47,637 nucleotides of DNA from a virus (taxonomy: Duplodnaviria > Caudoviricetes), in IMG/VR virus record IMGVR_UViG_3300036520_000011, positions 1 through 47,637 of that record; one strand, given 5' to 3'. The notes below the pieces were generated by a model. It was not told where the DNA came from. It worked only from the letters and a program-made list of their open reading frames with translations, and did no database searches. Position 1 is the first letter of the stretch, and each line of letters opens with the position of its first letter. Made by a program: the position numbers and the translations under genes. Shown in pieces: positions 2,279 to 39,534 of this stretch.

Positions 2279-2601
2279 GTCCCTCCTCCTCGCCGACGAA
2301 CGCGGGCGAGCGCGTCGGATTTCCGATCTACGACGGGCCCTGGCTCTTGCTCGAGCGGAGCGGGCGCGGCCTGTTCACCATGCGCAACGGTCTCCGGCTT
2401 CCGCAAGCGGGCAGGCAGGTTGTCGAGCCACTCGTCCACATGCGCCCGGTTCCAGCGCAGGACGTGCACGCCCAGGTCCACCGGCGCCACCGGGCAGACG
2501 GTCGTGAAGGTCGCCTCGCTGACGCCGATGTATGCGGCGGCCTGAGCACGGCTCAGCAGCTTCGGCCAGGCGTCAGGGATCTCGGAGCCGGGGCGGCTCA
2601 T
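2230..2601 (-). CDS. Excisionase / AlpA-like HTH protein
   Basis: WPKLLSRAQAAAYIGVS...RWNRAHVDEWLD winged-HTH pattern, directly upstream of int. Confidence 0.8.
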   Translation of the reverse strand: MSRPGSEIPDAWPKLLSRAQAAAYIGVSEATFTTVCPVAPVDLGVHVLRWNRAHVDEWLDNLPARLRKPETVAHGEQAAPAPLEQEPGPVVDRKSDALARVRRRGGGTWRESHTSSASGRTAA

Positions 2602-3242
2602 GTGGCACCTGCCGGAATCGTGGCAGCGTCAGCCGCATGGCCTTTCCAGTCGAGATCATTCAGACGGGCCCAAACTGGGATGCGATCTGGGGCGGCGTCC
2701 AGGCGATTGGCTCCGTGCTTGCGATCCTGGTCGCGGTGTTTGTTAGTTGGTGGGAGGGACACCGCACAGATCGGGCTGAGCGCAGGCGACACAGGGAATT
2801 CTATCGATGGCTGTCCGCCGCGGCTCAAGACCTTCAAATGATCGTATCGAGAGCCCTGCAAGAGCATGGGCCTGAAGGTACGCCTCCGGGCTATCGTGCT
2901 CGACTCGCTAACGCCGACCCGTGTGAAGTCGTCTTGGGGAGCTTCCTTCAGCTGCCGGTGATGTCTTGGCCTACTACCGCAGGCTACGGGGAATTGTCCG
3001 CCTATCTGCAGAAGATTGCCACGCCGCTGTACTACCTTCGGTCGGTCAAGGACGGTGAGAAGCTCCAAGATCACCTTCTGCGGATTACCCACGAAGGCTG
3101 GGCGGACACCGAGTACGCCTACACGAAGCTGCTCGTTCGGATCACTCCGAAGCGGCGTTACCGACTCCTGTACCGGATGAGGGCTTGGTGGTCGCTGAGA
3201 GGGCTCAAAGCCAAGCCGGGGTGAGCTCGCTTCCCGGCTCAT
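2598..3242 (-). other. Bridge ORF 1 (214 codons) on the operon strand spanning accessory gene 1
   Basis: ATGA overlap with the upstream stop at 3239-3242, GGAGG RBS before it, and ATGA overlap with the xis start at 2598-2601. Confidence 0.55.
2637..3224 (+). CDS. Antisense accessory gene 1: N-terminal single-TM, helical protein
   Basis: ATG at 2637; TM segment WGGVQAIGSVLAILVAVFVSWW followed by a basic stretch; opposite strand to flanking genes. Confidence 0.8.
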   Translation: MAFPVEIIQTGPNWDAIWGGVQAIGSVLAILVAVFVSWWEGHRTDRAERRRHREFYRWLSAAAQDLQMIVSRALQEHGPEGTPPGYRARLANADPCEVVLGSFLQLPVMSWPTTAGYGELSAYLQKIATPLYYLRSVKDGEKLQDHLLRITHEGWADTEYAYTKLLVRITPKRRYRLLYRMRAWWSLRGLKAKPG

Positions 3243-3802
3243 CCGACCGGCGCCTCCACGCTCAAGGTCGTGACGTAGACGGTCGGGTTCTCCGCCCAGG
3301 CGTCCTCCCCGTTGATCCGATTCCAGAGACGCGCGTAGGCACCTACGGCTGTTGGCTGCACAATGGGTGAGGCGTCGTGGCCCATGTCGGCGATGCCGAA
3401 GCCGTCGTGCAGGCGCTCGATGCCTTCAGCCCGCGCGTCGGCCTCGCTGATGTCGTGCAGCGGCTCCGGCCGCACCGCCTCGACCGTCAGCCCGATGCGG
3501 CAGGCCCAGCGCGGCATGTGGATGGAAGGGCGATAGCCGGGCTTGTCCTTCAGGCCTGCCGCCAGAGCGATGGAGAAGTCCTCGTGCTGCTCCGTCCAAC
3601 TCTGGCGCTCGCTGGCCTGGTAGCGGATGCGCGCGACGTCGCTAAAGCGCTCGTGCAACCGCCACGCCTCCCGCACCCACAGCCGGTCGCCAGCGACCCA
3701 GCGCGGTGCGCGCGTGCGCCTGGTCTGCGTCTTACGGCCGGCGAGTAGTGCGCGAACCATCGGCCCGCTGAATAGGATCGGGTGCTCGTTCAAGACGGCC
3801 AT
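3239..3802 (-). CDS. Phage ASCH/PUA-like protein
   Basis: PILFSGPMVRALLAGRKTQTRR...GDRLWVRE...PSIHMPRWA...DARAEG...W..NP.V signature. Confidence 0.85.
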   Translation of the reverse strand: MAVLNEHPILFSGPMVRALLAGRKTQTRRTRAPRWVAGDRLWVREAWRLHERFSDVARIRYQASERQSWTEQHEDFSIALAAGLKDKPGYRPSIHMPRWACRIGLTVEAVRPEPLHDISEADARAEGIERLHDGFGIADMGHDASPIVQPTAVGAYARLWNRINGEDAWAENPTVYVTTLSVEAPVG

Positions 3803-4431
3803 CCCGGAATCGTAGGAGCTTCCCAGAAGAGGTTCGTGGGTCGAATGCTGATCGATTTTGGTGCCAGCTCTGAGCTGGGAAGCGCTGCAGAGTGGGTTGG
3901 AGCCGTGGGAAGCGTCCTTAGCGGCGGCACAGCGCTTGTGCTTGCGCTGAGAGAGCGGCGCCGCGCGAACGAGGCGGACGCGCGTGCTGACGCAGCAGAA
4001 GCTCGGGAAGCGGCCGCTGAAGCGAAGGCCGAAGCCGCGAAGGAGCGGCAGCGGGAGGAATTGATCGGATCGCTACAGCTGATTGTTGAAAGGGGGCTCG
4101 CCGCCTGCGACGCGCTCTTGGCCGAGCGGGAGGACGTCTTAGTAGGAGAGCGAAATAAGCATGCCCATCCCTGGTTCGACGCGATGGGACGGCTAATGGC
4201 CAAAGTGATTGCACTTAAGTCGCTCTGCGAGGAGCGTCCGCGAACGGCGATGGTGTACGCCGAGTTGATTAAAGCAACCGGGGTCGCACTTCCCTTCCTG
4301 AATATCTCAACGGCAAAAGAGCAGATTGCAGAGGTAGAGCGTCGTCGAGCGGAGTTCCGCCATATCTCTACGCTGCTCGACTTCATCGATCCTCCTGATG
4401 AATGAGCTGAGTGTCTGAAGCTTACCGACAT
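3790..4431 (-). other. Bridge ORF 2 (213 codons) spanning accessory gene 2
   Basis: ATG at 4431 overlaps the RecT-like stop (10-nt overlap) with a GGAGGG RBS; its stop at 3790 lies in the first codons of the ASCH-like gene. Confidence 0.5.
3845..4405 (+). CDS. Antisense accessory gene 2: N-terminal single-TM plus coiled coil
   Basis: AEWVGAVGSVLSGGTALVLAL TM, then RERRR and an Ala/Glu coiled coil; atypical codons. Confidence 0.8.
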   Translation: MLIDFGASSELGSAAEWVGAVGSVLSGGTALVLALRERRRANEADARADAAEAREAAAEAKAEAAKERQREELIGSLQLIVERGLAACDALLAEREDVLVGERNKHAHPWFDAMGRLMAKVIALKSLCEERPRTAMVYAELIKATGVALPFLNISTAKEQIAEVERRRAEFRHISTLLDFIDPPDE

Positions 4432-5267
4432 GCTTCCGGTCCCTCCGCCCGCAGCGGCAGGTCGCCGGGGAACACGTCTTCATTGGGTTGCGGAGCCGCC
4501 GCCTGGGGGGCATCGGGCGACGGCTCCGCGCCCTCAGCCCGGGCGGTGTCGGCCGGAGCGGGCGAGGGATCGGTGAAGTCTGCGTCGGTGACGGGCGAAA
4601 GCTCCGCCTCAACGTGAGCGGCTGAGAAGCCGGAGGCGACGGGCGAGCCTTGCGCCTCCAGCCGAGCGCGGATGCCGGAAGCTTGCGGCGTGACTTCGCG
4701 CGCCGGCTGGAAGTCCTCGACCTCTTCGCGGACCTGAATGCCGCGAAGCATGTCGCCGCAGCCGTCGCGGAGAGACCACGCGCGGGCCCGCATCTGCAGC
4801 ATGCGCTTCGGGTACTGGGTCCAGGGACCGGTCTTGCCCCACAGCCCCGCCTTCTTGGCGTCGGCGACCGAGAAGGTGCGCTCGATCTGCTCGCCGGTGT
4901 CGGGCCGGGTGCATTCACAGTAGGCGACCATTCCGTCGCCTTCGCCCGCGATCCACTCCCGAAGCTTCACGCCGCGCGCGCGGACCACGGCGACCAGGCC
5001 GTCGCCCCAGAGCGTGGGGCGTCCGTTCACGACGGCGAACGACTGCAAGCTCTGGAAGGGCGCGAGGCCGAGCTCCGCGCCGGCCATGATGGCCACCATG
5101 ATCTGCTCGGGCCGGTCGATGCCCTTGGGCGCTAGGCCAGACGCCGCAATGGCGCCGGAAAGGCGGAAGGCCTCGTCCAGCGTCTGCGGCACGAGGGCGG
5201 CGACCTGGGCACCGGCGACGATCTGCGGCTTGGGCCGCTCTTGAGTGGCGGGGACATTGGCGGACAT
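4422..5267 (-). CDS. RecT-like single-strand annealing recombinase
   Basis: GAELGLAPFQSLQSFAVVNGRPTLWGD...W.QYPKRMLQMRAR..LRD; adjacent to an exonuclease. Confidence 0.8.
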   Translation of the reverse strand: MSANVPATQERPKPQIVAGAQVAALVPQTLDEAFRLSGAIAASGLAPKGIDRPEQIMVAIMAGAELGLAPFQSLQSFAVVNGRPTLWGDGLVAVVRARGVKLREWIAGEGDGMVAYCECTRPDTGEQIERTFSVADAKKAGLWGKTGPWTQYPKRMLQMRARAWSLRDGCGDMLRGIQVREEVEDFQPAREVTPQASGIRARLEAQGSPVASGFSAAHVEAELSPVTDADFTDPSPAPADTARAEGAEPSPDAPQAAAPQPNEDVFPGDLPLRAEGPEACR

Positions 5268-6199
5268 CAGGCGGCTAGCTCCTGCTGGATGGTGGCGAGG
5301 CGGTGCTCGATGCGGGTTCGGTGGAAGGGCTTGAGCTCGACGTACTCGGCGTCGGTCTGCTCGCCGCCGGGACCGGGCCAGCGGCCGGTCTCAATGCAGC
5401 GGGCGAAGACAGAGAGGGCGGCGCGGACCTGCTGCTCGCCGAGCTCCAGGTCGCAGGGCTTCAGCGTCTTCACCCGCACGCAGTAGGGCGGGGTCTTTTC
5501 GACGAAGACGAGGCTGAAGCTGGTCAGCTCGCGGCCGAACACGGCGCGGCAGCCCATGGCGACTAGCGCGCCTTGCATGTTCAGGCCATCGCGGCCGATC
5601 GCCGTTTCGATCCCCTCGTCGGTGACGTCGGCGGCGGTCTTCAGGTCGGAGAAGTCGAGGTCCGTCGTCGGGATGGCGTCAGGCCGCGCCTTGAGCCAAA
5701 TCCCGGTCTCGGGATCCTGCCAGACTAGGCTGTGCTCGATCAGGCCGTTCAGGGCGCCGGCGTGTATCAGCGGATGGCCGGCGAGGCTCGCCGCCATGCC
5801 GCGGATGTGCTCGATCTGCTTGCCGACAAGGACCGTCAGCCGCTCGGCCCTCATCGCTTCGAGCCAAAGCTTGCAGTCTTTCCGGTTGCCCTGCCACGGC
5901 GCGCCGTTCAGCTCCTCGGGCCGTACGACGAAGTGGCGGCCGAACTCCGCCTCACCCAGTAGCAGGTGGTGCGCGGCGCGACCGAAGATCAGCGCCTCGC
6001 CGGGCTCCTCCTCAACGCGGTTCGGGTTCAGGTACGAGCCCGCGAAGTAGTGCGCTGCGCTCTCGTAGAAGATGGTCCGCAGGCCGCTCGAGCTGATGCT
6101 CGGGCCGGTCGTCAGCTGCCCGTGATAGGCGTCCATGCTGACGCCGCGGTACAGGCCGGGCGTGTCGATCGGCTCGCCGGTCCAGAGCGTCGCCTCCAT
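5267..6199 (-). CDS. RecE/exonuclease VIII-like PD-(D/E)XK nuclease
   Basis: YH...ISSSGL...FGRAAH...KARPD...DLKT...FVEKTPPY; start re-assigned to ATG 6199 (GGAGG RBS, TGATG coupling). Confidence 0.85.
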   Translation of the reverse strand: MEATLWTGEPIDTPGLYRGVSMDAYHGQLTTGPSISSSGLRTIFYESAAHYFAGSYLNPNRVEEEPGEALIFGRAAHHLLLGEAEFGRHFVVRPEELNGAPWQGNRKDCKLWLEAMRAERLTVLVGKQIEHIRGMAASLAGHPLIHAGALNGLIEHSLVWQDPETGIWLKARPDAIPTTDLDFSDLKTAADVTDEGIETAIGRDGLNMQGALVAMGCRAVFGRELTSFSLVFVEKTPPYCVRVKTLKPCDLELGEQQVRAALSVFARCIETGRWPGPGGEQTDAEYVELKPFHRTRIEHRLATIQQELAA

Positions 6200-6393
6200 C
6201 AGACGACCTCCACCAACAGCATCACCCACATGCCGGCGACGGTCCGGAACCCGACCGCGCCCAGCAGCGACGGCATGACCGCACGCACGGAGGACCGGCG
6301 GCACACGCGGCTGGGCTTCGGCGGCGCCTTCACGATGGGCTGGCGCGCACGCAGCACGGCGACGGGGTAGGGCGCGTTCTCGGCGAGGCGCAT
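6199..6393 (-). CDS. Small hypothetical protein with hydrophobic C-terminus
   Basis: TGATG-coupled on both sides. Confidence 0.6.
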   Translation of the reverse strand: MRLAENAPYPVAVLRARQPIVKAPPKPSRVCRRSSVRAVMPSLLGAVGFRTVAGMWVMLLVEVV

Positions 6394-6695
6394 CAGGCCG
6401 CGCTCGGTGGCGTGCAGCCTCCGACCTCCTGAAGGGCCTCCGCCAGCGCCTGGGCCTTGCCGAGCGTAAGGACGCAGAGGTCCAGGCTGGCGAAGTCGCG
6501 GCCCTTGGCGTCCAGCGCGGCCTGCAGGATTAGATCGTCCAGCAGCGTGGCAGCCGCAGCAGGAGTGAGCGTCGAGCCGGTGCTGGTGATGACGCGGCCG
6601 GCGTGGGCGCAGAAAGCCACCGGGACGTGGCGGTCGCTGTTGTCCACAGCGAGCCGCGGCGTTGGGCGAGTGGGAAAGGCGATGACGTCGGACAC
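6393..6695 (-). CDS. Hypothetical early protein (MSDVIAFPTRP...)
   Basis: GTG start with AGGGG RBS; VIAFP N-terminal motif common in phage early proteins; coupled to the next gene. Confidence 0.6.
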   Translation of the reverse strand: MSDVIAFPTRPTPRLAVDNSDRHVPVAFCAHAGRVITSTGSTLTPAAAATLLDDLILQAALDAKGRDFASLDLCVLTLGKAQALAEALQEVGGCTPPSAA

Positions 6696-6705
6696 GTCGG
6701 ATCCC

Positions 6706-6948
6706 CTATGCAGCCGCCCGCCACCGCGAGGCGGCGAGCAGGGCGTTGCTGAGGTCGGTGAAGGCGCGACGCAGGTACGCCGTGGCGGCGTCACTGGCGG
6801 TCTGGCGGGCTAGGGCGAGCTGCACGAAGGCTTTGACGCCGCGCGCCTCGTCCAGGGTGAGGAAGCGGGTCGCGCCGGTGCCGGTGCTGGCGAACACGTC
6901 GCCGCCGGAGCACCAGTAGAGCAGGCCGTCGGGGGCAGGGGCGCGCAT
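6706..6948 (-). CDS. Hypothetical early protein
   Basis: ATG 6948 in a TGATG overlap; host-like codon usage. Confidence 0.6.
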   Translation of the reverse strand: MRAPAPDGLLYWCSGGDVFASTGTGATRFLTLDEARGVKAFVQLALARQTASDAATAYLRRAFTDLSNALLAASRWRAAA

Positions 6949-7208
6949 CAGGCGGCCTTCCGTGCGCGGATGCGTTCGGCGGCCTTCTCGGCCTGCACGC
7001 GCCTGGCTTCGGCTCGCGCCTGCTCTGCCGCCCACCAATGTCGCGCTTTGCTCTCGGCTTCGGCTGCCGTGGCGGCGAAGAACACGACGGGGTGGTATTC
7101 CTCTTTGCCCTTCTTGCGAGCCTTCGGGCTCATGGCGGGCAGGAGGATGCGGGCGCAGGCCTCGTTGCCGGTAGGGGCATTGGTGCTGGTCCAGGTGACG
7201 ACGCGCAT
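6948..7208 (-). CDS. Hypothetical early protein
   Basis: GGAG RBS; operon context; ends in -AA. Confidence 0.65.
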   Translation of the reverse strand: MRVVTWTSTNAPTGNEACARILLPAMSPKARKKGKEEYHPVVFFAATAAEAESKARHWWAAEQARAEARRVQAEKAAERIRARKAA

Positions 7209-7213
7209 GACGG

Positions 7214-7498
7214 CTACTCCGCCGCCATCAGGAGGAATTCGCCCGCGCCTTCAGCAACGGGAGGCGGGGTCAGTTGGCGGATCCGAGCCGCGCCGTTGCG
7301 TTTGGCCGCTTCAAGCCGGTCGATCTGGCGGCGGTGGCCGTTGGCCGATGCAGGGCTGTTCCGGAGCGCCCACGCCAGCGCCCGCCGGCACACGCCAAGC
7401 TGCTGGTCGTAGCGCTCCAGCGTCTCCTCGATCCGAGCGACGCTCGTCTCGTAGGTGAAGGGCCAGAAGGCCGAAGCGGGGGTGCCGCGGGTCTGCAT
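7214..7498 (-). CDS. First gene of the leftward early operon, hypothetical
   Basis: GGAGA RBS; lies just downstream of the putative pL/OL. Confidence 0.65.
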   Translation of the reverse strand: MQTRGTPASAFWPFTYETSVARIEETLERYDQQLGVCRRALAWALRNSPASANGHRRQIDRLEAAKRNGAARIRQLTPPPVAEGAGEFLLMAAE

Positions 7499-7534
7499 CG
7501 GTCGTCTCCGTCAGCGCTGGGCTGATGAGGAGAG

Positions 7535-7578
7535 AACAGCATTTATGCCGCTATGCCGTCAACAGCATTTATGCCGCT
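7535..7578. promoter_or_regulatory. Left operator (two AACAGCATTTATGCCGCT copies) overlapping a leftward promoter (TTGACG -35 on minus strand)
   Basis: Exact 18-bp direct repeat at 7535-7552 and 7561-7578; imperfect palindrome; the same motif recurs between cI and cro. Confidence 0.8.
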
Positions 7579-7620
7579 TATTGGTCGAAGCGGCCTATGC
7601 CACGCTTAGTTGGGGGTCCT

Positions 7621-8052
7621 ATGAGAAGAATACTGATCGCTCTGACGATTTTCACGGCCACGACCGTCTGCGGGAATGCTCAGGCTCAAGACGGCGCTTC
7701 AGCGCGCGCTTGGATGGAGACGAACCTCAAGGCGGACGGCTGGAGCTACCTGGGAAGCGCGACTGACCTCATCGCCATTTATCGCCGAGCCCTCGCGCCG
7801 CCTTCCTCCAAGCGGGCCTGGATCCGCTACGAGCACACAGCCCCGACAAAGGACGGGGTACGAAGTCGCGTAATGCTTTATGACGTTGATTGCAGTCAGT
7901 ACCGGGTGCGTCAGTTGCAGTCGTCGACCTACAGCCGGAACAACATGCAGGGAGAGGGTCAGCGGGAGGGGGAAGTCGCCAGCTGGGAGTACGGGGCCCC
8001 TGGAACTTTCCTGGAAGCCTTCGCGCAGGCGATTTGCTCAGACGAAAGCTGA
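7621..8052 (+). CDS. Exported protein resembling the surface-adhesin E family
   Basis: Signal peptide MRRILIALTIFTATTVCGNAQA; YDVDC...W...PGT...C pattern; located in the immunity region. Confidence 0.65.
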   Translation: MRRILIALTIFTATTVCGNAQAQDGASARAWMETNLKADGWSYLGSATDLIAIYRRALAPPSSKRAWIRYEHTAPTKDGVRSRVMLYDVDCSQYRVRQLQSSTYSRNNMQGEGQREGEVASWEYGAPGTFLEAFAQAICSDES

Positions 8053-8736
8053 GTAGGCACCGATCACCAGCCCGACGATCTCAACTTCAACGTCTTCTTC
8101 TTCAGGCACTCCGTCGGTGAGAACGATCGGCTTCGACCATCGTTGATTGGTCGAACGAGGCCACAGCTCCACGACGCCAGCGCCATCCAGCGCCACCTGC
8201 TTGATGGTGCGCTCCCGGATCGAACCTCCAGCGCGGCGCCGCTCGACTACAACGAAGTCGCCGTGGCGCGGCGCGTATCCCATTTCAATCGCGTCTACGA
8301 CGTGGGCGTATCCACCCTCGGGAATGCGCAGGTTGACGCTATCCCCGACGACGAGCTCCAGCCACTGCGGCCACTCGGCATAACGTGGATCTGGCGCCAC
8401 CGGATGTGAGGCGTCATCCGGTGCGACTTGAGCGTAATCGTCGACTTCAAACCAGTGGCCAGCCTGCACTTTGTGTCTGACCGTCAGGAAAGCAGGAACG
8501 AGCTGCGACTCTCGAGCGCTGGCGAATGATGGGGCCTCGACGGCCGCTGCGTCTGCGAGCTTGGCCAATGTGCGGCTGCTAGTGACGAATTCGTAGTCGT
8601 CTTTCAGCGGCCTCTGAACGGTGGTGGGGGCTAGCTGAGCCTTCTTCGCCCAGGCGGCAGCAGTCCACCCCTTCTCTGCGAGTACGGACCTCATCCAAGT
8701 CCGGATCTGTGCCGCCACCTCAGCCTGGTCTGCCAT
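8038..8736 (-). CDS. cI: CI-like repressor (HTH plus S24 autoprotease)
   Basis: N-terminal HTH; GDSV (catalytic Ser) and RTIKQ (catalytic Lys); divergent from a cro-like gene. Confidence 0.88.
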   Translation of the reverse strand: MADQAEVAAQIRTWMRSVLAEKGWTAAAWAKKAQLAPTTVQRPLKDDYEFVTSSRTLAKLADAAAVEAPSFASARESQLVPAFLTVRHKVQAGHWFEVDDYAQVAPDDASHPVAPDPRYAEWPQWLELVVGDSVNLRIPEGGYAHVVDAIEMGYAPRHGDFVVVERRRAGGSIRERTIKQVALDGAGVVELWPRSTNQRWSKPIVLTDGVPEEEDVEVEIVGLVIGAYSAFV

Positions 8737-8823
8737 GCGGCGAAAATGCTGCGAAGGCGCTGCTCGGCATAGCGGCATAAACGCTGTTGCCCTCACGGCA
8801 GAAATGCAGCATTAATGCCGCTA
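8737..8823. promoter_or_regulatory. Right operator region with three to four operator-like sites
   Basis: GCGGCGAAAATGCTGC, AGCGGCATAAACGCTGTT and GCAGCATTAATGCCGCT match the left operator motif. Confidence 0.8.
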
Positions 8824-9066
8824 ATGACGGAAAAGCAGCCCTCAGACCTGGTCCTGCAGTTCGAGCGCGAGTGCGCGGCCGCCGACATCCGGCCGACCGC
8901 AGCCCTCAAGACTGGCGGGGTGCACCCGACGCTCTGGAAGAAGTGGCGCGACGGCTCGGCCTCGCCGACGCTGCGCAACTTCGATGCGGCCCGGGCAGGG
9001 CTGCAGGTGCTCATTCGTCGGAAGGCCGCGAACAGCGGCGTCATCCCCCAAGACGCTGCGGCCTGA
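8824..9066 (+). CDS. Cro-like HTH regulator
   Basis: Small HTH (GGVHPTLWKKWRDGSASPTL), divergent from cI. Confidence 0.8.
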   Translation: MTEKQPSDLVLQFERECAAADIRPTAALKTGGVHPTLWKKWRDGSASPTLRNFDAARAGLQVLIRRKAANSGVIPQDAAA

Positions 9067-9191
9067 TCGTGCCGCCGCGCCTTCACCTTTCGCGCGCACT
9101 TGAACAGCCCCCAGCCCTGGGCGCGCGGAACCGGCCGGGGAGCGATCCAAGGCGCTCCCCGGCCACCCTCATCAGTCATGCTCGTCCCGGC

Positions 9192-9407
9192 TCAGCCGGT
9201 CGTTCCGCAAACCCGAGTAGCGGGCCCGGCGCCAACCGGACCCGCGCATCTCGTCATCGCCAGCGCCAATCCGCGCTGCCTCAGGTGTCGCCCGTAGCGC
9301 CGCAGGATCTCCGCGGTAGCCGGGTCATGTTCCGCGGCGGCGGTCTCGCATCGTCTCGCCGCGTCGAAGTGCTCTCTAACTACGTCCAGCCGAACCAGAA
9401 CTCCCAT
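9192..9407 (-). CDS. Small antisense hypothetical protein (71 aa) between cro and the cII-like gene
   Basis: GGAG RBS 8 nt before the ATG; helical-looking sequence MGVLVRLDVVREHFDAARRCE. Confidence 0.4.
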   Translation of the reverse strand: MGVLVRLDVVREHFDAARRCETAAAEHDPATAEILRRYGRHLRQRGLALAMTRCAGPVGAGPATRVCGTTG

Positions 9408-9445
9408 GCTGCGCGCTCCAGCGCTCCCGACCGAGGTCAGCACCA

Positions 9446-9865
9446 ATGACCTGGACGGGAGCGCATTGCATGCGGGACGATCCGCAACTTTTGCAGCGGC
9501 GGCTGAGCGCCTTCGTGCGCCAGCACGGCACGGCCAAGCAGCTGGCCGAGCGCATCGAGTGCGACGTCCGCACGGCCGAGAACATCCGCCAGGGCCACTG
9601 GCCGATCGCCCGCCACTGGCTGGGCCTGCTCCGCGCCTTCGGTGACGACCTGACCGAAGCCGTTTTCCACCCTGAGCGCGCCGTCGAGCGCCTCGAACGT
9701 GAGGTCCAAGAACTTGAAGCCGCCGCTGCGAGAGCACGGGCCGAGCTTCGCCAGGTGGAGGGCTCTGATCCTCGCCTTCCGAAGGCTGTGGCTCCGAATG
9801 AAGACCGGGCCGCCGGCCTGAACGGGCGCTCCTACGCCCCGCGCGATCAACACCCCCCGACCTGA
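9446..9865 (+). CDS. CII-position HTH regulator with coiled coil
   Basis: TAKQLAERIECDVRTAENIRQG HTH; position after cro. The start may be 9470. Confidence 0.7.
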   Translation: MTWTGAHCMRDDPQLLQRRLSAFVRQHGTAKQLAERIECDVRTAENIRQGHWPIARHWLGLLRAFGDDLTEAVFHPERAVERLEREVQELEAAAARARAELRQVEGSDPRLPKAVAPNEDRAAGLNGRSYAPRDQHPPT

Positions 9866-9921
9866 CGGATGGCCCCGACCGGCCGCCGGGGATGCGCGGC
9901 CTAAGCGAAGGAGGGTCCGGA

Positions 9922-10611
9922 GTGGCCCACGAAAGCGAAGAGACGGGAGCAACCCCGGGCGTCGGCCACAATGGCGACGTGCCGGAAGAGGCGCTGTTCC
10001 TCAGCCACCTGAACAAGCTGCGCAAGCAGGCTGGTGTGGTGGCCGAGAAGAAGGCCGCCTACGACGCCGAGAAGGCGACCATGACGGACCTGTTCCGCAT
10101 GGCGAAGGTCGACGGCTTCACCCGCAAGGAGCTGCAGGCGATCCTCGATGACACGTCGGCGGCCGAACCCGGCGCCCGGCGCGACCTGGTGGCCGAGGAA
10201 GAGCGTCGCGCCAAGCTGCGCGCCTGGGCCGGTCTGCCGGCCGGCTCACAAGGCGACCTGTTCGACACCGCCACGCCGCAGGAAGCCAAAGACGAGCTCT
10301 TCTACGAGGGCCTCGGCTACGCGGCCGGTCTTCGTGGCGACGACGCCACGGCGCCGACCGACGTGCCTCCGCGCTTCGTCCAGGCGTGGCTGCGCGGTCG
10401 CATGTCTGGCCAGGAGAAGCTGGCGTGGGGCTTGGCTGAAGCGGGCAGGGTAGTGGACCGCAAGCCGGACGCCAACGCTGCGCCGGTCGAGCTTGAGCCT
10501 GAGCCGGAAGAAGAGTTCGACCCCGACGCCGCGGCGCGGAAGCTGAAGAACGACCCGGCCTTCATGGACCGCTCGGCGCCCGACGCCGATGAGCTGGACG
10601 AGGCCGCTTGA
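9922..10611 (+). CDS. GapR/DUF2312-like N-terminus fused to an RMF-like C-terminal motif
   Basis: GHN motif and DLFRMAKVDGFTRKELQAIL; C-terminal GYAAGLRG...P...WLRG; GGAGG RBS. Confidence 0.6.
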   Translation: MAHESEETGATPGVGHNGDVPEEALFLSHLNKLRKQAGVVAEKKAAYDAEKATMTDLFRMAKVDGFTRKELQAILDDTSAAEPGARRDLVAEEERRAKLRAWAGLPAGSQGDLFDTATPQEAKDELFYEGLGYAAGLRGDDATAPTDVPPRFVQAWLRGRMSGQEKLAWGLAEAGRVVDRKPDANAAPVELEPEPEEEFDPDAAARKLKNDPAFMDRSAPDADELDEAA

Positions 10612-11039
10612 TGGCCGCCGCCGCTCCGGCAGGGCTGCGTGCCGGTGGTCTTCCGCGTCGGAAGCCCCGGGCCCGTGAACTCCCGCTGCACATTGCGGCG
10701 GCGAGCTTCATGGCGCGCGCCCTGCCGGAAGGCGTGCTCTGGTCCCATTTCCCCGCCGGTGAAAAGCGCGACGGCCGCGCCGCCTCCAAGCTGAAGGCCA
10801 TGGGCCTAAAGCCCGGCTGGCCCGACTTCATCCTGGTGCTGCCTGACGGGCGGGCCGGGTTCATTGAGCTCAAGGCCAAGGGCGGCTCGCTGTCGCCGGA
10901 TCAGAAGGCCTTCGAAAAGTCGGCCAAGGCGCTCGGCGCCCGCCACGCGGAGTGCCGCTCGCTCGAAGAGGTCGAGTATGCGCTATCCCGCTGGCTGCAG
11001 CCTCACGGCCTGGTTCTGCGCGTGAGGATCGCGGCATGA
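10608..11039 (+). CDS. VRR-NUC domain nuclease
   Basis: LKAMGLKPGWPDF...FIELK...LSPDQKAF. Confidence 0.85.
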   Translation: MMAAAAPAGLRAGGLPRRKPRARELPLHIAAASFMARALPEGVLWSHFPAGEKRDGRAASKLKAMGLKPGWPDFILVLPDGRAGFIELKAKGGSLSPDQKAFEKSAKALGARHAECRSLEEVEYALSRWLQPHGLVLRVRIAA

Positions 11040-11260
11040 CGCGGGCGCTGCAGAACTTCCACGGCGCGGCCCGTTCGCAGGAGCGACGCACCCGAGCCGC
11101 TGAGCCGGACGCGACTGAGCGCGCGACGGTGGAGCGCATGCTCGGCTTCCGCGCGTCGTGGGCATCGATCGCGCTGGCTATCGGCCGAACGATCCCGACC
11201 ACGCGCCGGCTGTACGACCCGACCTATGAGGCGTCCGGCGCGCCCGAGGTGGCGGCATGA
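11036..11260 (+). CDS. Small HTH protein
   Basis: ASWASIALAIGRTIPTTRR; ATGA-coupled. Confidence 0.65.
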   Translation: MTRALQNFHGAARSQERRTRAAEPDATERATVERMLGFRASWASIALAIGRTIPTTRRLYDPTYEASGAPEVAA

Positions 11261-11973
11261 CCAGACGACTCCGGCACCTGTTCGGCAGGTGGCTTTCTCA
11301 TCGACGCGGCGATCTCGTCTCGAAGGGTCTTGGGAATTTCGGCTTCTACTCTGGCCTTCACGTGCAGCAGCTGGCGCCTGGCCCAGCGCAGTTGCTCAGC
11401 GTAGCCACGCAGTTCCTGCAGCCTCTCCGCAAAATCGATAGGCTCGGACCCCTCGACGGAGCCGCCTTCCTTCTCAACTTCGAGGAAGTCGAGCGGGCTA
11501 CGCAAAACCTCTCTGGACGTAGGCATCTCATCGACGGTTGCAGCTGCTTCTTCCAGCACCTGCTCGATCGCAGTCAGCGGCCATACGAGCGCCGGTTCTT
11601 CTATCCAGTGGGTCAGGTAGGTATTCGCCCGCCGTACCGAGACCCTCAGATCACGCGCCCATGCGGCCGTATCATAGTGGACCGGCTCGTATGCCAGGAG
11701 CTTCGTCGACACATTCTGCGCGTCGTCGATCAGCTCGTTCAGCTTGTCCAGCGAGCGCTCATTGATCCCGATCGCGTGGAGGGTCACACGAGCAGTCTCG
11801 TACCGCGCTTCTTCCTTCGTGCGTTTCCGCTCCAGGCCCGGAACGACGAAAGCCGTGACCACAACCCCGGCGTTTACGACAGCGCTGATGGCGGCGACCC
11901 AGACGGCCCACCACGCCGCTTCTCCCGCCATGGCCGCCCAGTAGATCGTCTTGGGATCTGCGATTTCCTGCAT
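11224..11973 (-). CDS. Antisense accessory gene 3: N-terminal TM, helical protein
   Basis: TM WAVWVAAISAVVNAGVVVTAFVVP; candidate -10 GTGCTACCTC upstream; paralogous to gene 4. Confidence 0.8.
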   Translation of the reverse strand: MQEIADPKTIYWAAMAGEAAWWAVWVAAISAVVNAGVVVTAFVVPGLERKRTKEEARYETARVTLHAIGINERSLDKLNELIDDAQNVSTKLLAYEPVHYDTAAWARDLRVSVRRANTYLTHWIEEPALVWPLTAIEQVLEEAAATVDEMPTSREVLRSPLDFLEVEKEGGSVEGSEPIDFAERLQELRGYAEQLRWARRQLLHVKARVEAEIPKTLRDEIAASMRKPPAEQVPESSGHAATSGAPDAS

Positions 11974-12042
11974 TCCGCCCCCCAGCGCCTGCCCACCAGA
12001 GGTAGCACGCGCGGCGCGGCCGTCCACGCGAGGGCGGCATGA
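11257..12042 (+). other. Bridge ORF 3 (261 codons) spanning accessory gene 3
   Basis: ATGA overlaps at both ends (11257-11260 and 12039-12042), each within GGCGGCATGA; ends in -AA. Confidence 0.55.
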
Positions 12043-13196
12043 GCGTCCGCATCCTCATCGGCGACGTGCGCGAGAAGCTGCGCGAGCTGCCGGCCGACTC
12101 TTTCGACTGCGTCGTCACCTCGCCGCCGTACTGGGGTCTCCGGGACTACGGAGTCGAGGGGCAGATCGGGCGCGAGCGCAGCCTTGGTGAGCACCTTGCC
12201 GTGATGGTCGAGGTGTTCCGTGAGGTGCACCGAGTCCTGAAGCAGCACGGCACGCTCTGGCTGAACTACGGGGATTGCTACGCGGCGGCGCCGAACGGCA
12301 AGTCGGCCGCAGCCTACAAGGAGGAGGGGAGCGAGGACCGCACCTTCCGGGATAAGCCGTTCTCCACCGTCGGGCCAATCTACGATCCCCACTACGCCAC
12401 TGCTCGAGGCAAGTTCACCGGCACCGATCTCGGTGTGGGTGGGGTCGGTACGCGCCGTCTCGATCACGGCGGCAGGGTCGTCGCAGGCGGCCTCCTGAAG
12501 CCCAAAGACCTTTGCATGATCCCGAACCGGCTCGCGATCGCGCTGCAGGACGATGGCTGGTACGTCCGATCCGAAATCATCTGGCACAAGCCGAACCCGA
12601 TGCCGGAGTCGGTCTACGACCGGCCCACCTCGGCGCACGAGAAGATCTGGCTCCTCACGAAGGGCGAGGACTACTTCTACAACCACGAGGCCATCAGGGA
12701 GCCTGTCACCGGCGGCACGCACCCGCGCCGAGCGGGGCCGAATAGCCGTCAGAACGTCGATCGCGTCCCGGTGCGCAGGAAGACGGTCGCGCCTGGCCTG
12801 GGCATCAAGAACAACAGCAGCTTCGACGCCGCGCTGGACAATCACACTTCAGAGACGCGCAATGCGCGCAACGTCTGGACCATCGCGCCGCGCGCCTTCC
12901 GCGAGGCGCACTTCGCAACCTTCCCGCCGGCGCTCGCGGAGCGCTGCCTGAAGGCGGGCGCGCCTCCGACGATCTGCGCCGCATGCGGCTCGATCGAGGG
13001 CTGCGGCGGAATCTGCGAGGTGTTCGGTCGCCGACCCGGTCATGTACTCGACCCGTTCGGCGGGGCCGGCACGGTCGGTCTTGTTGCGGAGCAGCTCGGC
13101 CTCGACTGCACGCTGATCGAACTGAACCCTGAATACGCCGCGATAGCAGAGCGCCGGATCCTGGGCGGCGCGCCGTCTGAAGCGGAGGCCGCATGA
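12039..13196 (+). CDS. Orphan DNA amino-methyltransferase (N4-C/N6-A, beta class)
   Basis: TSPPY motif IV before VLDPFGGAGT motif I; HFATFP. Confidence 0.92.
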   Translation: MSVRILIGDVREKLRELPADSFDCVVTSPPYWGLRDYGVEGQIGRERSLGEHLAVMVEVFREVHRVLKQHGTLWLNYGDCYAAAPNGKSAAAYKEEGSEDRTFRDKPFSTVGPIYDPHYATARGKFTGTDLGVGGVGTRRLDHGGRVVAGGLLKPKDLCMIPNRLAIALQDDGWYVRSEIIWHKPNPMPESVYDRPTSAHEKIWLLTKGEDYFYNHEAIREPVTGGTHPRRAGPNSRQNVDRVPVRRKTVAPGLGIKNNSSFDAALDNHTSETRNARNVWTIAPRAFREAHFATFPPALAERCLKAGAPPTICAACGSIEGCGGICEVFGRRPGHVLDPFGGAGTVGLVAEQLGLDCTLIELNPEYAAIAERRILGGAPSEAEAA

Positions 13197-13576
13197 CGGG
13201 CCACGTCTCCCTCGCGCTGCTCGGCCTGATGAAGCCACGTGTCGGCCCCTGCAGCACGCCGCGCACACGCTTGTGGTCGGCCGAAGAAGACCGGATCCTG
13301 GACCGTACCCGGCACCTGCAGCCCGGTCAGGTTGCCGATGTGCTGCAGGGCCACGGCTTCACGCGTGGCTCCGAGGCGATCGCGTCGCGCCGGGGCATCC
13401 GCTACGGCTCCCGCCGGCCGCTGACGATCCTGGAAGCGCTCGAGTTCGGCCTCGACCTGCTGCACCCACCGGCGACCGACTGGCCGAAGCTGGAAGGGAC
13501 ACACGAAGAGCGCGATCGCGCTTACTGGCGTCTGCTCTGCGAGGAGCAGCTCGTCATGCTCCGGAGGGCTGCCTGA
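13193..13576 (+). CDS. Hypothetical protein with Myb/HTH-like WS.EED motif
   Basis: Coupled on both sides; LWSAEEDRIL. Confidence 0.7.
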   Translation: MTGHVSLALLGLMKPRVGPCSTPRTRLWSAEEDRILDRTRHLQPGQVADVLQGHGFTRGSEAIASRRGIRYGSRRPLTILEALEFGLDLLHPPATDWPKLEGTHEERDRAYWRLLCEEQLVMLRRAA

Positions 13577-14412
13577 TGGCCGCCCCTCCGTATCAGAAGC
13601 TCTTCTGGGGCTCGTACCACAAGCACACCGCGCACCTGCTGCACGCGCGGGAGCACGGGGCATACCTGCTGCTCATCGGGGCGCTGTGGAACAACGACGG
13701 GCGCCTGCCGGCGGACGACAACACCCTGGCTTCTTACGCGAAGCTCACGCCCAAGGAGTGGCAGGCGATCAAGCCGAAGCTGATGCCGCTCTTCCGTGTC
13801 GTGCGTGGCAAGCTGACCCAGCCTCGCGTGTCCGAGGATTTGGCCAAGTACCGTGACACTTCCTGTAAGCGCAAAGAGGCCGGAAAAGCGGGTGGCATCG
13901 CAAGCGCTAGAAAGAACTCAGGAAATGGCGCAGCAAATGCTCCGCGTTTGCCGACAAAACCAGAACCAGAACCAGAACCAAATATAGATGCTGCTGAAGA
14001 GCGCGGGCGCGAGAGCGCTGCGCCTGCCGACGACTGGCCTCCCGAAGGCAGGCCCGCCGATGTGCTCGTCCAGCTGATCGACAGCCCCCACCTCGACCCG
14101 AACCGCTCGCCGACGCTGGTGACGACGGCGGGTCGGGTCTCGGCCTGGCGCCGGGAAGGGGCGTCCTGGGTCCAGGACGTCATCCCCGTCGTCTCGGGTC
14201 TCGTCCAGCGTGCGCGAAGTCCCATCGGCTCCTGGAAGTTCTTCGACGCCGCCGTCGCCCAGTCGATCGCCGACAACCGCCAAGCCCTCACCATCCCCGA
14301 GGCCCGCCATGACCGCCCCGACCACAGTCCAGCCCCATCTGCCCGCCTTGGCGAGCGCCAAGCCAATCTGGAACGAGCTCTCGCGGGAGCTCGGCGAGCG
14401 GCTACGTCGTGA
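13576..14412 (+). CDS. Replication initiator, YdaU/DUF1376-like
   Basis: T.HL...EHGAYLLLI..W...G.LP.DD..LA; PEPEPEP linker; internal AT-rich patch about 13850-14000 (possible origin). Confidence 0.8.
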   Translation: MAAPPYQKLFWGSYHKHTAHLLHAREHGAYLLLIGALWNNDGRLPADDNTLASYAKLTPKEWQAIKPKLMPLFRVVRGKLTQPRVSEDLAKYRDTSCKRKEAGKAGGIASARKNSGNGAANAPRLPTKPEPEPEPNIDAAEERGRESAAPADDWPPEGRPADVLVQLIDSPHLDPNRSPTLVTTAGRVSAWRREGASWVQDVIPVVSGLVQRARSPIGSWKFFDAAVAQSIADNRQALTIPEARHDRPDHSPAPSARLGERQANLERALAGARRAATS

Positions 14413-15001
14413 CCAGCCTGCCGAGCAGACAGCGCACGAGGTCGCCGAAAGCCCGAGGCTGCGGCAGGAGGCGAGCGCCGCCTTGCCAAAGCTCGAAGCC
14501 GCGGCGGCGCCGTGCGGAGAGGCGGGCGTGATGGCCGCGGTGTCGCCGCTCTTCGCCGTCTTCCCGCCGCCGCAGCGCTCCGAGGCGGAGTGGGCGACCT
14601 GGTGGGCGGCCTATTTCGAGGACCTCGGCTTCCTGCCGCTGGAGGCGCTGAAGGACGCGGTTCGCGAGTTCCGGCGCCAGGGCGACGCGGAGTTTTTCCC
14701 CAAGCCGGGCAAGCTGCGGGACCTCGCCACCCGCCACGCAGCGCCGGTGCAGCGAGCGCTCTTCCGGTGCAAGCTTGCCCTGCAGCAGCCGGAGCCGCGG
14801 GAGATCACGGCGGAGGAGCGGGATCAGCGCCGGCAGCTGGTGGCGCAGACCCTGGCCCAGCTATCGGCGCGGCAGCCGACTACGCCCGAGAAGCCGATCC
14901 TTCCTCCGGTGCGGCCGCCCCTTGTCGCCGGCGGGATCACGCCTGAGATGGCTGCCCGCCTTCAGCCGGTGGAAGAGTTTGCCGGGGAGCCTGTTCGATG
15001 A
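14309..15001 (+). CDS. Replication-associated protein (helicase-loader position)
   Basis: Y.EDL..LP.EAL..AV..FRR....FFPKPG pattern; follows the initiator. Confidence 0.65.
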   Translation: MTAPTTVQPHLPALASAKPIWNELSRELGERLRRDQPAEQTAHEVAESPRLRQEASAALPKLEAAAAPCGEAGVMAAVSPLFAVFPPPQRSEAEWATWWAAYFEDLGFLPLEALKDAVREFRRQGDAEFFPKPGKLRDLATRHAAPVQRALFRCKLALQQPEPREITAEERDQRRQLVAQTLAQLSARQPTTPEKPILPPVRPPLVAGGITPEMAARLQPVEEFAGEPVR

Positions 15002-15747
15002 GCCGCCATGCAGAGCAGGATCGGTGCCGAACCGCGAACGAACCCAGCGTGACGTCTCAGCGACCGTCAAGCTTTGGCTCGCAGCAGTTTCCGGCGCACC
15101 GCCGCTCGTTTCCGCTGCTTCGAAGCCGTTCGAGCTTCCGAGTACGAATCCAGAAAGTTGCGGTGCAGCCGCAGCCGCTCGGCGGCTTCAAATGTAGCCA
15201 ATCTCACCGTGCTCAGGGCGGCGTTCGGATTTTGCTGCGGATCGAAATCCTTCAGCTCGTCATCCAGAAGCTTGATGAGGTCTTCAAGCTCGTGCTGCGT
15301 CCTCGTCAGCGGCTCGATCAAGGCGGGATCGAAAATCCAGTTGTTCAAGTACCGCTCTACCCGGGACGCTTCGATGGTGAACTCTCGGCGCCATCGCTTC
15401 ATTGCTCGCAGAGCGTCGATGTTCATCGCAGGGTGTTTCGCTCGCATGGCCTCGTCGAAGGTCGACTGAACCGCAGCAATTCCCGCGCTGCCGGCGCTGG
15501 CAGAGACCAAGTCGATCCGCTCCTCCTCCGCCGCCTGATCCCTCTTGTAAAGCCAGTGGGCGTAGGCCGGCGAAGCGACGGCCACGATCACAACCAGAAA
15601 GTTGATGAATGTAGCTGTTCGGGTGGCCTCATAGGTGGCCCATGCTGCACCCGCAGAACTGATGGCCGCCGCTGCCGAAGTCAGTTCGAGAATGTCATTG
15701 GCCACGAGCGTCCTCTCTTTCGCGGCCCTACTTCGAGACGAGTCGTT
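14998..15747 (+). other. Bridge ORF 4 (250 codons), in frame with the downstream nuclease gene
   Basis: ATGA overlap at 14998-15001 with a GGGGAG RBS; no stop before the nuclease ATG at 15748 (same frame). Confidence 0.5.
15067..15705 (-). CDS. Antisense accessory gene 4: N-terminal TM, helical protein
   Basis: GTG start with GAGAGG RBS; TM FINFLVVIVAVASP; shares YL..WI..PAL..PLT with gene 3. Confidence 0.8.
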   Translation of the reverse strand: MANDILELTSAAAAISSAGAAWATYEATRTATFINFLVVIVAVASPAYAHWLYKRDQAAEEERIDLVSASAGSAGIAAVQSTFDEAMRAKHPAMNIDALRAMKRWRREFTIEASRVERYLNNWIFDPALIEPLTRTQHELEDLIKLLDDELKDFDPQQNPNAALSTVRLATFEAAERLRLHRNFLDSYSEARTASKQRKRAAVRRKLLRAKA

Positions 15748-16167
15748 ATGGTCCGCCACCTCAAGTATGCGGCCGCTCTGCTCCTAGTGGCCGGCCCGGT
15801 CATCGCGGACCCCTGCGAAGCCCCTGTCTCCGGCTACAAGCCCGGCGCCACGGTGGCCGGCACTGTGCGCTACGTGGGGGACGGCGACAGCATCTGCATC
15901 GGGCCCGGCGCCGACCCGCGGACGTGGACGGAGATCCGCCTCGCCGATCTCTACGCCCCCGAGCTGAACGCGCCCGGCGGCCGAGAGGCCAAGGCCACCA
16001 TGGAGCGCATGGCCAAGGGAAAGCGCGCCGTCTGCACCGCCCGCCTGAACAACCGCGGCGACAGCACCCGATCACATGACCGGCTCGTCGCCAGCTGCAC
16101 GGTCAACGGCCGCAGCCTGGCCGAGCTGATGAGATCGGCCGGAGTACGGGAGGGCGGCAACCGATGA
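15748..16167 (+). CDS. Exported thermonuclease (SNase-like) protein
   Basis: Signal peptide; GDGDS, IRLADLYAPE and R.VA.C motifs. Confidence 0.85.
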   Translation: MVRHLKYAAALLLVAGPVIADPCEAPVSGYKPGATVAGTVRYVGDGDSICIGPGADPRTWTEIRLADLYAPELNAPGGREAKATMERMAKGKRAVCTARLNNRGDSTRSHDRLVASCTVNGRSLAELMRSAGVREGGNR

Positions 16168-39310: not shown

Positions 39311-39534
39311 GTGGCGTGCCATAGCACACGGCTCTCGCCCCTTCCTCCAGTTCGTCTGCGAACGGCGGGGCCGCAGCAGAGCCTATCGTTTGGCTGAGCA
39401 CGTCATCGCCTAGTCTGAGGAGGAAGCGGGGCGGTGCAATCGCGGCGGGTTATCTTAGATCACAACAATCCATGCTTGCGTCCGCGCATATTGTTTGAGA
39501 TGCAGGGGTGGGCTGTTCGATGAGCGGTGTTCGA

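Follow-up and report, generated by a model that had tools for sequence, protein, structure and literature searches.

Reversed membrane-protein genes in phage early operons are spanned by open, end-coupled antisense reading frames that are probably translated

Noncontiguous operons, in which a gene is nested antisense within an operon, have been described in prophages for Staphylococcus aureus phage 80alpha, with tha/ith and three more cases, and for phi80, with tai/ati (PMC11087260, PMC11364771, PMC11034616). As far as the available text of these reports goes, the nested genes have their own promoters and are expressed reciprocally in lysogeny and lysis, a defense gene is paired with a separate inhibitor protein, and the operon strand of the nested gene is treated as untranslated; one report calls this untranslated strand puzzling and attributes it to transcription being uncoupled in Gram-positive bacteria (PMC11034616). 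The layout itself is already known; the cassettes described here differ in that the operon strand across the nested gene is an open frame coupled at its ends, and in that no separate inhibitor protein is evident. A literature search returned no account of end-coupled open bridges across reversed operon genes.

Other described systems share parts of this arrangement. In lambda and P22 the exclusion gene sieB (with sas/esc in P22) lies antisense in the early left operon and is, in the text available, controlled by antisense RNA (PMC12197685); it differs in lying behind N/24 in an operon that is antiterminated by N or gp24, in having no open antisense frame (9, 4, 15 and 8, 9, 19 stops, at a GC3 of 0.29–0.41 where closed frames are expected anyway), and in showing no sequence match to the cargo family described below. 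Ambigrammatic narnaviruses have a full-length reverse ORF whose openness is required and whose translation is, in the portion of the report available, the proposed function (PMC8316113), but these are eukaryotic RNA viruses without an operon, neighbor coupling, or Rho. The available account of Pseudomonas phage Fc02 places a lysogen-expressed gene and an early lytic operon ORF (olg1/gene 10) on opposite strands, as we presume for the cassettes here from their sequence, with products that both exclude phages (PMC9936078), whereas the operon-strand product here shows no constraint. Ribosome occupancy hides Rho loading sites in tnaC-type uORF control and in transcriptional polarity, according to the available text (PMC12360218). 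Those systems involve ordinary genes or short leaders with a regulatory role and have no 200-codon frame behind another gene. In P4 (eta/kil) and P1 (icd/ant), translation of an ORF is said to govern Rho-dependent termination in a phage operon; these are same-strand regulatory ORFs in immunity regions, unlike the antisense cassettes.

The window, that is, the whole 47,637-nt stretch of phage DNA that we analyzed, has early operons interrupted by four reversed genes (cargo 1–4), each with a predicted N-terminal hydrophobic helix. Each is spanned by an operon-strand ORF, here called a bridge, that overlaps the stop of the upstream gene and at its other end meets the next gene, stops inside it, or joins it in frame. 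Cassettes 1 and 2 and their neighbors are as follows:

2230..2601, minus strand, excisionase-like DNA-binding gene (phrog_597, phrog_66), downstream neighbor of bridge 1, which it overlaps by ATGA
2598..3242, minus strand, bridge 1, 214 codons (214 aa), in register with cargo 1, ATGA (-4) at both ends, GGAGG upstream
2637..3224, plus strand, cargo 1, 195 aa, WVQA[IV]GS membrane-anchored family (phmmer relatives P0004 and P0005; family HMM 42 bits)
3239..3802, minus strand, phrog_874 gene (PHROG match), lying between bridge 2 (upstream) and bridge 1 (downstream)
3790..4431, minus strand, bridge 2, 213 codons (213 aa), out of register, 10-nt overlap with the RecT end and 13-nt overlap with the next gene
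3803..3814, minus strand, putative leaderless promoter, TACGAT, then 6 nt, then the phrog_874 ATG
3845..4405, plus strand, cargo 2, 186 aa, predicted N-terminal hydrophobic helix, weak family HMM match (15.9 bits, E 0.016)
4422..5267, minus strand, RecT (PF03837, phrog_561), upstream neighbor of bridge 2

Cassettes 3 and 4, together with a late-region gene that serves as an internal control, are:

11036..11260, plus strand, 74-aa early gene, upstream neighbor of bridge 3; the last 37 nt of this gene contain the end of cargo 3
11224..11973, minus strand, cargo 3, 249 aa, predicted N-terminal hydrophobic helix
11257..12042, plus strand, bridge 3, 261 codons (261 aa), in register, ATGA at both ends
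11999..12026 (approximate), minus strand, putative promoter facing cargo 3 (TGGACG, 16 nt, TACCTC, TG extension)
12039..13196, plus strand, N6/N4 DNA methyltransferase (PF01555), downstream neighbor of bridge 3
14483..15001, plus strand, gene after the replication initiator, upstream neighbor of bridge 4 (start uncertain)
14998..15747, plus strand, bridge 4, 250 codons, in register, ATGA start, in frame into the nuclease
15067..15705, minus strand, cargo 4, 212 aa (230 from an upstream GTG), predicted N-terminal hydrophobic helix
15748..16167, plus strand, nuclease (phrog_452), own ATG, signal-like N-terminus
38732..39322, minus strand, late-region antisense methyltransferase, no bridge

In all four cassettes the gene is nested backwards among same-strand operon genes, which is the layout of a noncontiguous operon. 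The first-pass annotation, made from the letters alone, had given coordinates for the four cassettes that all check, and its description of membrane-anchored cargo, of a ribosome-binding site on each bridge, and of three bridges in codon register also holds: a hydrophobic 19-mer predicted near the N-terminus of every cargo protein has a mean Kyte–Doolittle value of 1.72–2.34 (0.77–1.19 in the bridges), an SD-like 4- or 5-mer precedes all four bridge starts, and the bridges in register are 1, 3, and 4. Its statement that each bridge ends on or fuses into the next start applies to these three, but bridge 2 stops 13 nt inside the next gene. The late methyltransferase, which it had singled out as lacking a bridge, has 5, 6, and 6 stops in its three antisense frames. 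Over the cargo, the operon strand has more C than G in all four bridges.

The in-register antisense frame is open in 17.6%, 19.2%, and 19.2% of GC3-matched control genes for cargo 1, 3, and 4, respectively, and in 5.7%, 7.7%, and 4.6% of synonymous resamplings; codon-order shuffles are uninformative on this frame. For bridge 2, 18% of codon shuffles and 21% of resamplings leave its frame open. Cassette 2 is the weakest case among the four and could owe its open frame to chance, an account to which, for this cassette alone, we give appreciable but minority weight. The joint chance for the four cassettes lies between ~1e-3 (controls, with 0.22 for cassette 2) and 5e-5 (resampling), before coupling is considered and in a window that was chosen by eye.

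The family of cargo 1 is a diffuse group of membrane proteins with a WVQA[IV]GS motif and forms 111 clusters at less than 50% identity. The in-register antisense frame is stop-free in 70 of the 111 clusters against 7.3 expected from GC3-matched control genes, and each of the two remaining antisense frames is open in 1 of 111. In the first family set 40 of 75 clusters were open against 0.9 expected, a contrast that is overstated because that null took its rates from closed members, and the control-gene null (7.3) is the one relied on; a second set, from which the window was excluded, added 37 clusters, 26 of them open. Across the 8300 codons of 40 open genes CTA, TCA, and TTA do not occur once, whereas other A-ending codons make up 9–29% of their boxes; cargo 1 likewise uses none of the three. 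An overlapping upstream start is in register in 57 of the 58 open members that have one (3 of 10 closed members), exact -4/-1 overlaps occur at both ends in 46 of 70 open clusters (56 exact or near), and the downstream overlap is exact in 52. At least an SD 4-mer precedes 68% of 62 bridge starts, compared with 5% of internal ATG/GTG codons, and an SD 4-mer precedes 49% of 53 downstream starts. Among the 40 open clusters of the first set, 35 lie in reverse orientation between same-strand operon genes. In an unselected survey, antisense inserts with a hydrophobic N-terminus were open and coupled at both ends in 7 of 17 cases, against 1 of 61 others. Thus, the in-register antisense frame of the cargo is open far beyond chance, starting on the upstream stop and ending on the downstream start, and the double-coded cassettes are real and recurrent, with an open frame that is selected. 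The first-pass annotation had cautioned that open antisense frames are common at high GC and had taken coupling as the real signal; coupling is indeed precise, but the caution was too modest, since at a GC3 of 0.4–0.7 control genes are rarely open and openness is the strongest signal in the family.

Homologous bridge frames had been expected to lack stops if the proposal was correct, and this is only partly the case, because 41 of the 111 clusters are closed. Of these, 24 are flanked by operon-strand genes on both sides, and a short coupled ORF chain replaces the bridge in only one of the 24, which argues that some cassettes do without a bridge; among the closed members, those with names are phi1026b gp50, vB_E438 gene 43, and the BgManors32 member. 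The tree, poorly resolved and long-tipped, intersperses open with closed members and shows little clustering (29 state changes against 33.2 when shuffled); it is a quick tree in which 7 of 108 branches are well supported and which dates neither gains nor losses. The operon strand over the cargo has more C than G in 83% of open and 93% of closed members, compared with 39% of ordinary sense strands; being equally marked in closed members, the bias does not discriminate open from closed. An extended -10 motif occurs on the cargo strand in 18 of 60 family cassettes versus 2.4 in shuffles, a frequency that would fit independent cargo expression.

We consider it likely that the back strand of these genes, which are real membrane-protein genes, is stop-free and joined to the operon genes so that ribosomes can cross the insert and keep the early lytic transcript going. 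Ribosomes finishing the upstream gene would re-initiate at the overlapping bridge start, run 200–260 codons across the antisense strand of the cargo, and restart at the next gene, and in doing so would deny Rho ~600–750 nt of otherwise naked C-rich RNA; that ribosomes shield RNA from Rho is treated as established in the available text of PMC12360218. The bridge peptide itself would be waste. The in-register frame would be used because it costs the cargo just three codons (TTA, CTA, and TCA), all of which have synonymous substitutes. Cargo would be driven by its own promoter inside the 3' end of the bridge, would be on in the lysogen, and would be turned down by early-operon transcription passing through it, and cassettes might move between phages by recombination at SD-plus-ATGA junctions or by inserting in frame into a gene already present. 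Plausible, but held tentatively, is the broader proposal that proteobacterial temperate phages use a general, undescribed double-coded cassette, in which a sacrificial back-strand ORF selected only for translation would allow a lysogeny-expressed membrane defense gene to be dropped into any coupled junction of a lytic operon without polarity and turned off on induction, standing in for N-type antitermination and marking a very large, fast-diverging anti-phage family.

Read in this way, the bridges offer a testable answer to the published question of how operon transcription gets past a reversed gene in bacteria that couple transcription to translation. They would provide a clear example of translation, and not a protein, being the target of selection, which bears on antisense ORFs in ribosome profiling and on stop-codon depletion, and the absence of TTA, CTA, and TCA together with ATGA at both ends may serve as a signature for finding lysogeny-expressed cargo. 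The unnamed membrane-protein family supplies candidate exclusion genes, either strand of such a cassette may get called in annotation, and a design rule for reversed genes in synthetic operons is suggested.

Translational coupling could also act by itself, with Rho uninvolved and the downstream gene dependent on a ribosome terminating at its start. The exact downstream overlaps in most open clusters, the SD 4-mer at only about half of the downstream starts, and the gene overlaps at almost every junction in both operons of the window are what this account expects, and, a short gap being enough for Rho, the exactness of the ATGA ends also points to coupling or to junctions that were inherited. 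We nevertheless regard it as rather unlikely as the sole explanation, since the other half of these starts come with an SD, since bridge 4 and several relatives continue in frame or far beyond the cargo, past the next start, and since 200 open codons would cost more than a short ORF placed at the downstream junction. The full ORF of bridge 4 extends over 14998–16167 (+), 389 aa, reading through the nuclease ATG at 15748; since fusion to the bridge would bury the signal-like N-terminus of the nuclease, that gene probably depends on a start of its own.

Bridge ribosomes might instead keep the operon mRNA from annealing to cargo mRNA and from being cut by RNase III, or favor the operon transcript in the collision by which the cargo is silenced. 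In this layout the overlap between sense and antisense transcripts is complete, noncontiguous operons act through collision and dsRNA decay in the available text of PMC11087260, and the narnavirus requires translation of its reverse ORF according to the portion of PMC8316113 available; but an exact overlap with the downstream start is not called for, and RNase III does not provide the chief mechanism in phage 80alpha as far as the accessible account goes, and we find this alternative unlikely.

If the bridge encoded a working protein, for example a cargo inhibitor produced solely on induction, as Ith is for Tha or Ati for Tai, its amino acids should be conserved. Constraint falls elsewhere. 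In diverged family pairs the cargo differs at 0.60–0.81 of fourfold sites when open and 0.59–0.85 when closed, and bridge identity is 0.19–0.37 in open versus 0.21–0.46 in closed pairs, no higher when open, which is the shadow of the cargo and speaks against a conserved antisense partner of the Tha/Ith or Tai/Ati type in these pairs. Of the codons that changed in two close pairs, 12 of 18 and 8 of 12 are synonymous in the cargo and nonsynonymous in the bridge, compared with ~22% of sites, so such changes are freely accepted. These are family pairs, the window's own bridges having no close homologs, and purifying constraint is seen in the cargo frame only, which also sets aside antisense overlapping genes that encode two proteins. 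The cargo thus behaves as a constrained protein gene and the bridge amino acids show no extra constraint, as the first-pass annotation had supposed in calling the bridges shadow sequence, so that selection acts on openness. Its further suggestion that bridge proteins do not fold finds weak support, in bridge 3 alone (single-sequence pLDDT 35, Atlas recognition 1023, neither decisive). Bridge 1 has no match in Pfam or PHROG, and the low-confidence fold and absence of family matches likewise speak against a functional product. On the other side, the timing and place would be right, such pairs are known in prophages, the overlapping antisense genes of Fc02 both exclude phages in the available text, and an N-terminal extension outside the cargo overlap is conserved in four relatives; weak constraint on a few bridge residues is possible, while a working bridge protein seems to us distinctly improbable.

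A reading by chance, in which high GC yields shadow ORFs and the ATGA ends come from the junctions where cassettes recombine, would draw on the ~18–19% of GC3-matched genes that are open in register, a share rising with GC3, on the report that long antisense ORFs exceed model predictions in frequency (PMC3454372, in the text available), and on cassette 2 being open in ~1/5 of shuffles, yet this is the least probable reading, given that the selective loss of exactly three codons, and a frequency and end points off the codon-usage expectation (70 of 111 against 7.3; start in register in 57 of 58), exclude a neutral shadow ORF for the cargo 1 family, barring large-scale miscalling of control genes.

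Searches for function gave the cargo no name. Cargo 1–4 matched no Pfam or PHROG family of known function and nothing in PADLOC above noise, and SieB homology was sought through the same profile searches, in which no named family was matched. Cargo 1 is modeled as a long N-terminal helix plus a helical bundle (pLDDT 78), and its fold search returned nothing at E <= 0.001, the best hits being chemoreceptor four-helix bundles at E about 1. No close homologs of cargo 1 were found, cargo 3 matched only itself in a homolog search, and neither cargo 3 nor cargo 4 matched the family HMM. No antitermination family was recognized among the early genes in the PHROG search, N-like proteins being short and divergent, and no RNA antiterminator was found in the window with Rfam; the absence of an N-like factor is a failure to recognize one only. 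Short unnamed genes at 6948–7498 remain N-like candidates.

One promoter and terminator scan of the window gave nothing above shuffles, and this strict consensus scan missed the promoter-like site facing cargo 3, which falls inside the 3' end of bridge 3 and is the only plausible cargo promoter seen in the window. Cassette 2 may possess its own downstream promoter. The ATG of the phrog_874 gene has no SD in front. A word near-identical to the TACGAT-containing site precedes the excisionase-like gene in cassette 1, which sits upstream of the integrase (1148–2278). Both junctions of bridge 3 read GAGG-(T)-GGCGGCATGA, and bridge 3 terminates in AA directly before its stop, as do most early genes in the window.

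Named phages share merely short stretches with the cassette region. In the family-wide genome search the RecT type occurs in 2 of 401 genomes, and most early operons of close Caulobacteraceae-like relatives carry no reversed insert, so that there is no same-junction series for this phage. One relative (L151) has a bridged member of the family, and another (L017) has a bridged insert that is unrelated.

The first-pass annotation had placed four reversed genes, each with an N-terminal hydrophobic helix (cargo 1–4), opposite stop-free ORFs of the operon strand (bridge 1–4; a cargo and its bridge form a cassette), and re-checking the sequence confirmed the position of all eight:

2637–3224, + strand, cargo 1
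2598–3242, − strand, bridge 1
3845–4405, + strand, cargo 2
3790–4431, − strand, bridge 2
11224–11973, − strand, cargo 3
11257–12042, + strand, bridge 3
15067–15705, − strand, cargo 4
14998–16167, + strand, bridge 4

Nearly all gene junctions in both early operons overlap, and the chains are unbroken once the bridges are counted. A gene caller trained on the surveyed loci favored cargo over bridge at all four places. ATGA marks both ends of bridges 1 and 3; bridge 2, which is not in register with cargo 2 (its codons do not align with those of the cargo), overlaps its neighbors by 10 and 13 nt; and bridge 4 continues in frame into a nuclease gene. Because most genes of the window phage carry in-register antisense stops, an open antisense frame is not the default in this phage; the chance of one is 5–19% for cassettes 1, 3, and 4, and approximately 20% for cassette 2, which may be a chance open frame.

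Cargo 1 has two distant relatives sharing a WVQA[IV]GS motif and resembles many unnamed Atlas clusters (0.96); its predicted structure, a long N-terminal helix with a helical bundle (pLDDT 78), had no significant structural match in a fold search. A degenerate pattern gave 126 matches in 124 viral loci, and removal of 44 cut-off matches left a first set of 82 genes (75 clusters at 50% identity). For the second set, another pattern (31 loci) was combined with an HMM run across all loci. Filtering the pooled set (HMM score of at least 18 bits, 90–300 codons from motif to stop, 150 nt flank) resulted in 144 ORFs in 114 clusters, or 111 after leaving out the window and two named records, and one member represents each cluster in the family counts. 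Cargo 3 and cargo 4 did not match the family HMM, and the family statistics therefore reach them by analogy alone. The neighbors of family cassettes (125 of 148 neighbors submitted to annotation) are varied early accessory genes, the flanking genes including methyltransferases, PAPS reductase, phrog_874, HNH, NinB, nucleotidase, Lar, and excisionase. Loci L365 and L411 carry a tandem pair of family cargo genes with closed (stop-containing) antisense frames in both.

In the first set, 40 clusters had no in-register antisense stop and 35 had 1–14 (n = 75); the second set contributed another 37 clusters, not counting the window, and 26 of these were open. Pooled, the frame is open from motif to stop in 70 of 111 clusters compared with 7.3 expected from 1,172 dereplicated, GC3-matched in-line genes (31 of 46 compared with 1.8 in the GC3 0.5–0.6 bin), and 61 of 99 clusters are all-open at 40% identity; formal P values for openness are overstated because clusters share ancestry. 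Fourfold sites between family relatives are saturated, which argues that openness is actively kept up, beyond mere inheritance.

When a start overlaps the stop of the upstream gene, it shares the register of the cargo in 57 of 58 open members but in 3 of 10 closed ones. In 33 of 44 open clusters, compared with 4 of 31 closed ones, a start overlaps the first in-register stop past the motif (2/44 and 6/44 for the other two frames of open clusters). Overlap is exact at both ends in 46 of the 70 open clusters and at neither end in two, and SD sequences at bridge starts are far above background. In loci sampled without regard to the motif, open and doubly coupled frames were seen for 7 of the 17 antisense inserts whose N-terminus is hydrophobic, compared with 1 of the 61 others; some of the seven are family members, and the insert class takes in repressors, host genes, and miscalls. 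On this evidence the core idea of the first-pass annotation, a double-coded cassette with an end-coupled open frame, stands, and judged from sequence such bridges are a real, selected, and widespread feature. An antisense insert in L191 (13024–13455), which lacks a hydrophobic N-terminus, is likewise open and coupled at either end. A second membrane cargo type, with a WDAW motif, occurs in Stenotrophomonas prophages (L086 14013–14657, L087 13335–13940, and L093 12699–13472), bridged and coupled at both ends.

Cargo third positions diverge equally in open and closed family pairs, and bridge identity is merely the shadow of the cargo. This constraint test ran on family pairs, the bridges of the window having no close homologs. 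The cargo is the protein gene, and the bridge is maintained open but not maintained in sequence. Bridges of L304, L322, L325, and L333 have a conserved N-terminal stretch of 80–110 residues outside the cargo overlap, perhaps a small real protein or gene stump. Against a general need for a bridge stand the 41 closed clusters, 24 of which are flanked by operon-strand genes on both sides; in closed members so placed, the upstream gap has a median of 83 nt compared with 14.5 nt in open ones, and a relay of short ORFs replacing the bridge was almost never found.

Ribosomes protect nascent RNA against Rho, and loss of coupling leads to polarity (PMC12360218). The operon strand across the cargo is C-rich; the bridge would retain ribosomes on this antisense stretch and then pass them to the next gene. 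Sequence alone fits Rho protection and translational coupling alike and does not separate them. An extended −10 on the cargo strand, within the bridge 3′ end and often touching the downstream ATGA, was found in 18 of 60 family cassettes compared with 2.4 in shuffles, and in none on the opposite strand. Its placement is compatible with a self-contained cassette whose cargo would be expressed in the lysogen from this candidate promoter; the Rho step, lysogen expression, and a defense role of the cargo are proposals that we infer. The word (C/T)ACGATTCCGG immediately precedes the downstream start in both cassette 1 and cassette 2 (minus strand, ∼2612–2622 and ∼3804–3814) and is like this −10 motif but in the opposite direction. 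Cassette 2 may have its own downstream promoter, and there the word would suit a leaderless phrog_874 transcript or a bidirectional promoter.

In 11 open members, the bridge starts more than 150 nt upstream. One of these bridges (L336) begins as a truncated PAPS-reductase-like gene, a label read from its SGGKDS motif only, which suggests in-frame insertion of cargo into an older gene as one origin; a second, exchange at gene boundaries, is suggested by the SD-GCGGC-ATGA junctions that recur in the window. Within 5267–13576, bridge 3 and 11 early genes have ...AA* or ...AE* as their C-terminus, the final codons containing an SD, likely a shuffling linker at gene boundaries.

Among known systems, P4 eta/kil and P1 icd/ant are possible comparison cases, and noncontiguous operons have the same layout as the window cassettes. 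In prophages, such operons have been demonstrated for Tha/Ith and Tai/Ati (PMC11087260, PMC11364771). According to PMC11034616, transcription has to persist across the untranslated antisense region, which is credited there to uncoupled transcription in Gram-positive bacteria. The sieB genes of lambda and P22 are positioned as in the window but have no bridge (sequence records; PMC12197685). Narnavirus reverse ORFs are the nearest case where translation itself is the function (PMC8316113), Fc02 overlapping genes have two active products (PMC9936078), and alternative frames show unexplained stop depletion (PMC3454372). Full-text literature, mostly non-subscription and as main texts without supplements, yielded no end-coupled, unconstrained bridge ORFs; the bridged cassette adds an open end-coupled frame to the known noncontiguous layout, an apparent novelty that this negative does not prove.

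By Pfam/PHROG-type assignments, the single 47.6-kb virus record has a lambdoid-like layout (integrase, excisionase-like gene, RecE/RecT, repressor, VRR-NUC, methyltransferase, replication genes, terminase, and tail genes). This virus probably exists as a prophage in a Caulobacteraceae-like host, because its RecT shares 66% identity with a Brevundimonas prophage gene and cargo 3 is recorded on a 3.6-Mb contig. A low-GC HNH gene (268–1158), encoded on the integrase strand, has an 11-nt overlap with the integrase stop and weakly matches a type IV restriction model, making it possible defense cargo. An Adhesin_E-like secreted protein gene (7621–8052), convergent with the repressor, is likely an accessory gene expressed in the lysogen. 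Between early genes and terminase lies a big gene (16995–19682) that encodes a zinc-dependent phospholipase C domain (PF00882) as well as a long coiled region, and at the right end (46726–47637) the window edge cuts an ATP-dependent DNA ligase gene with LigD-like domains.
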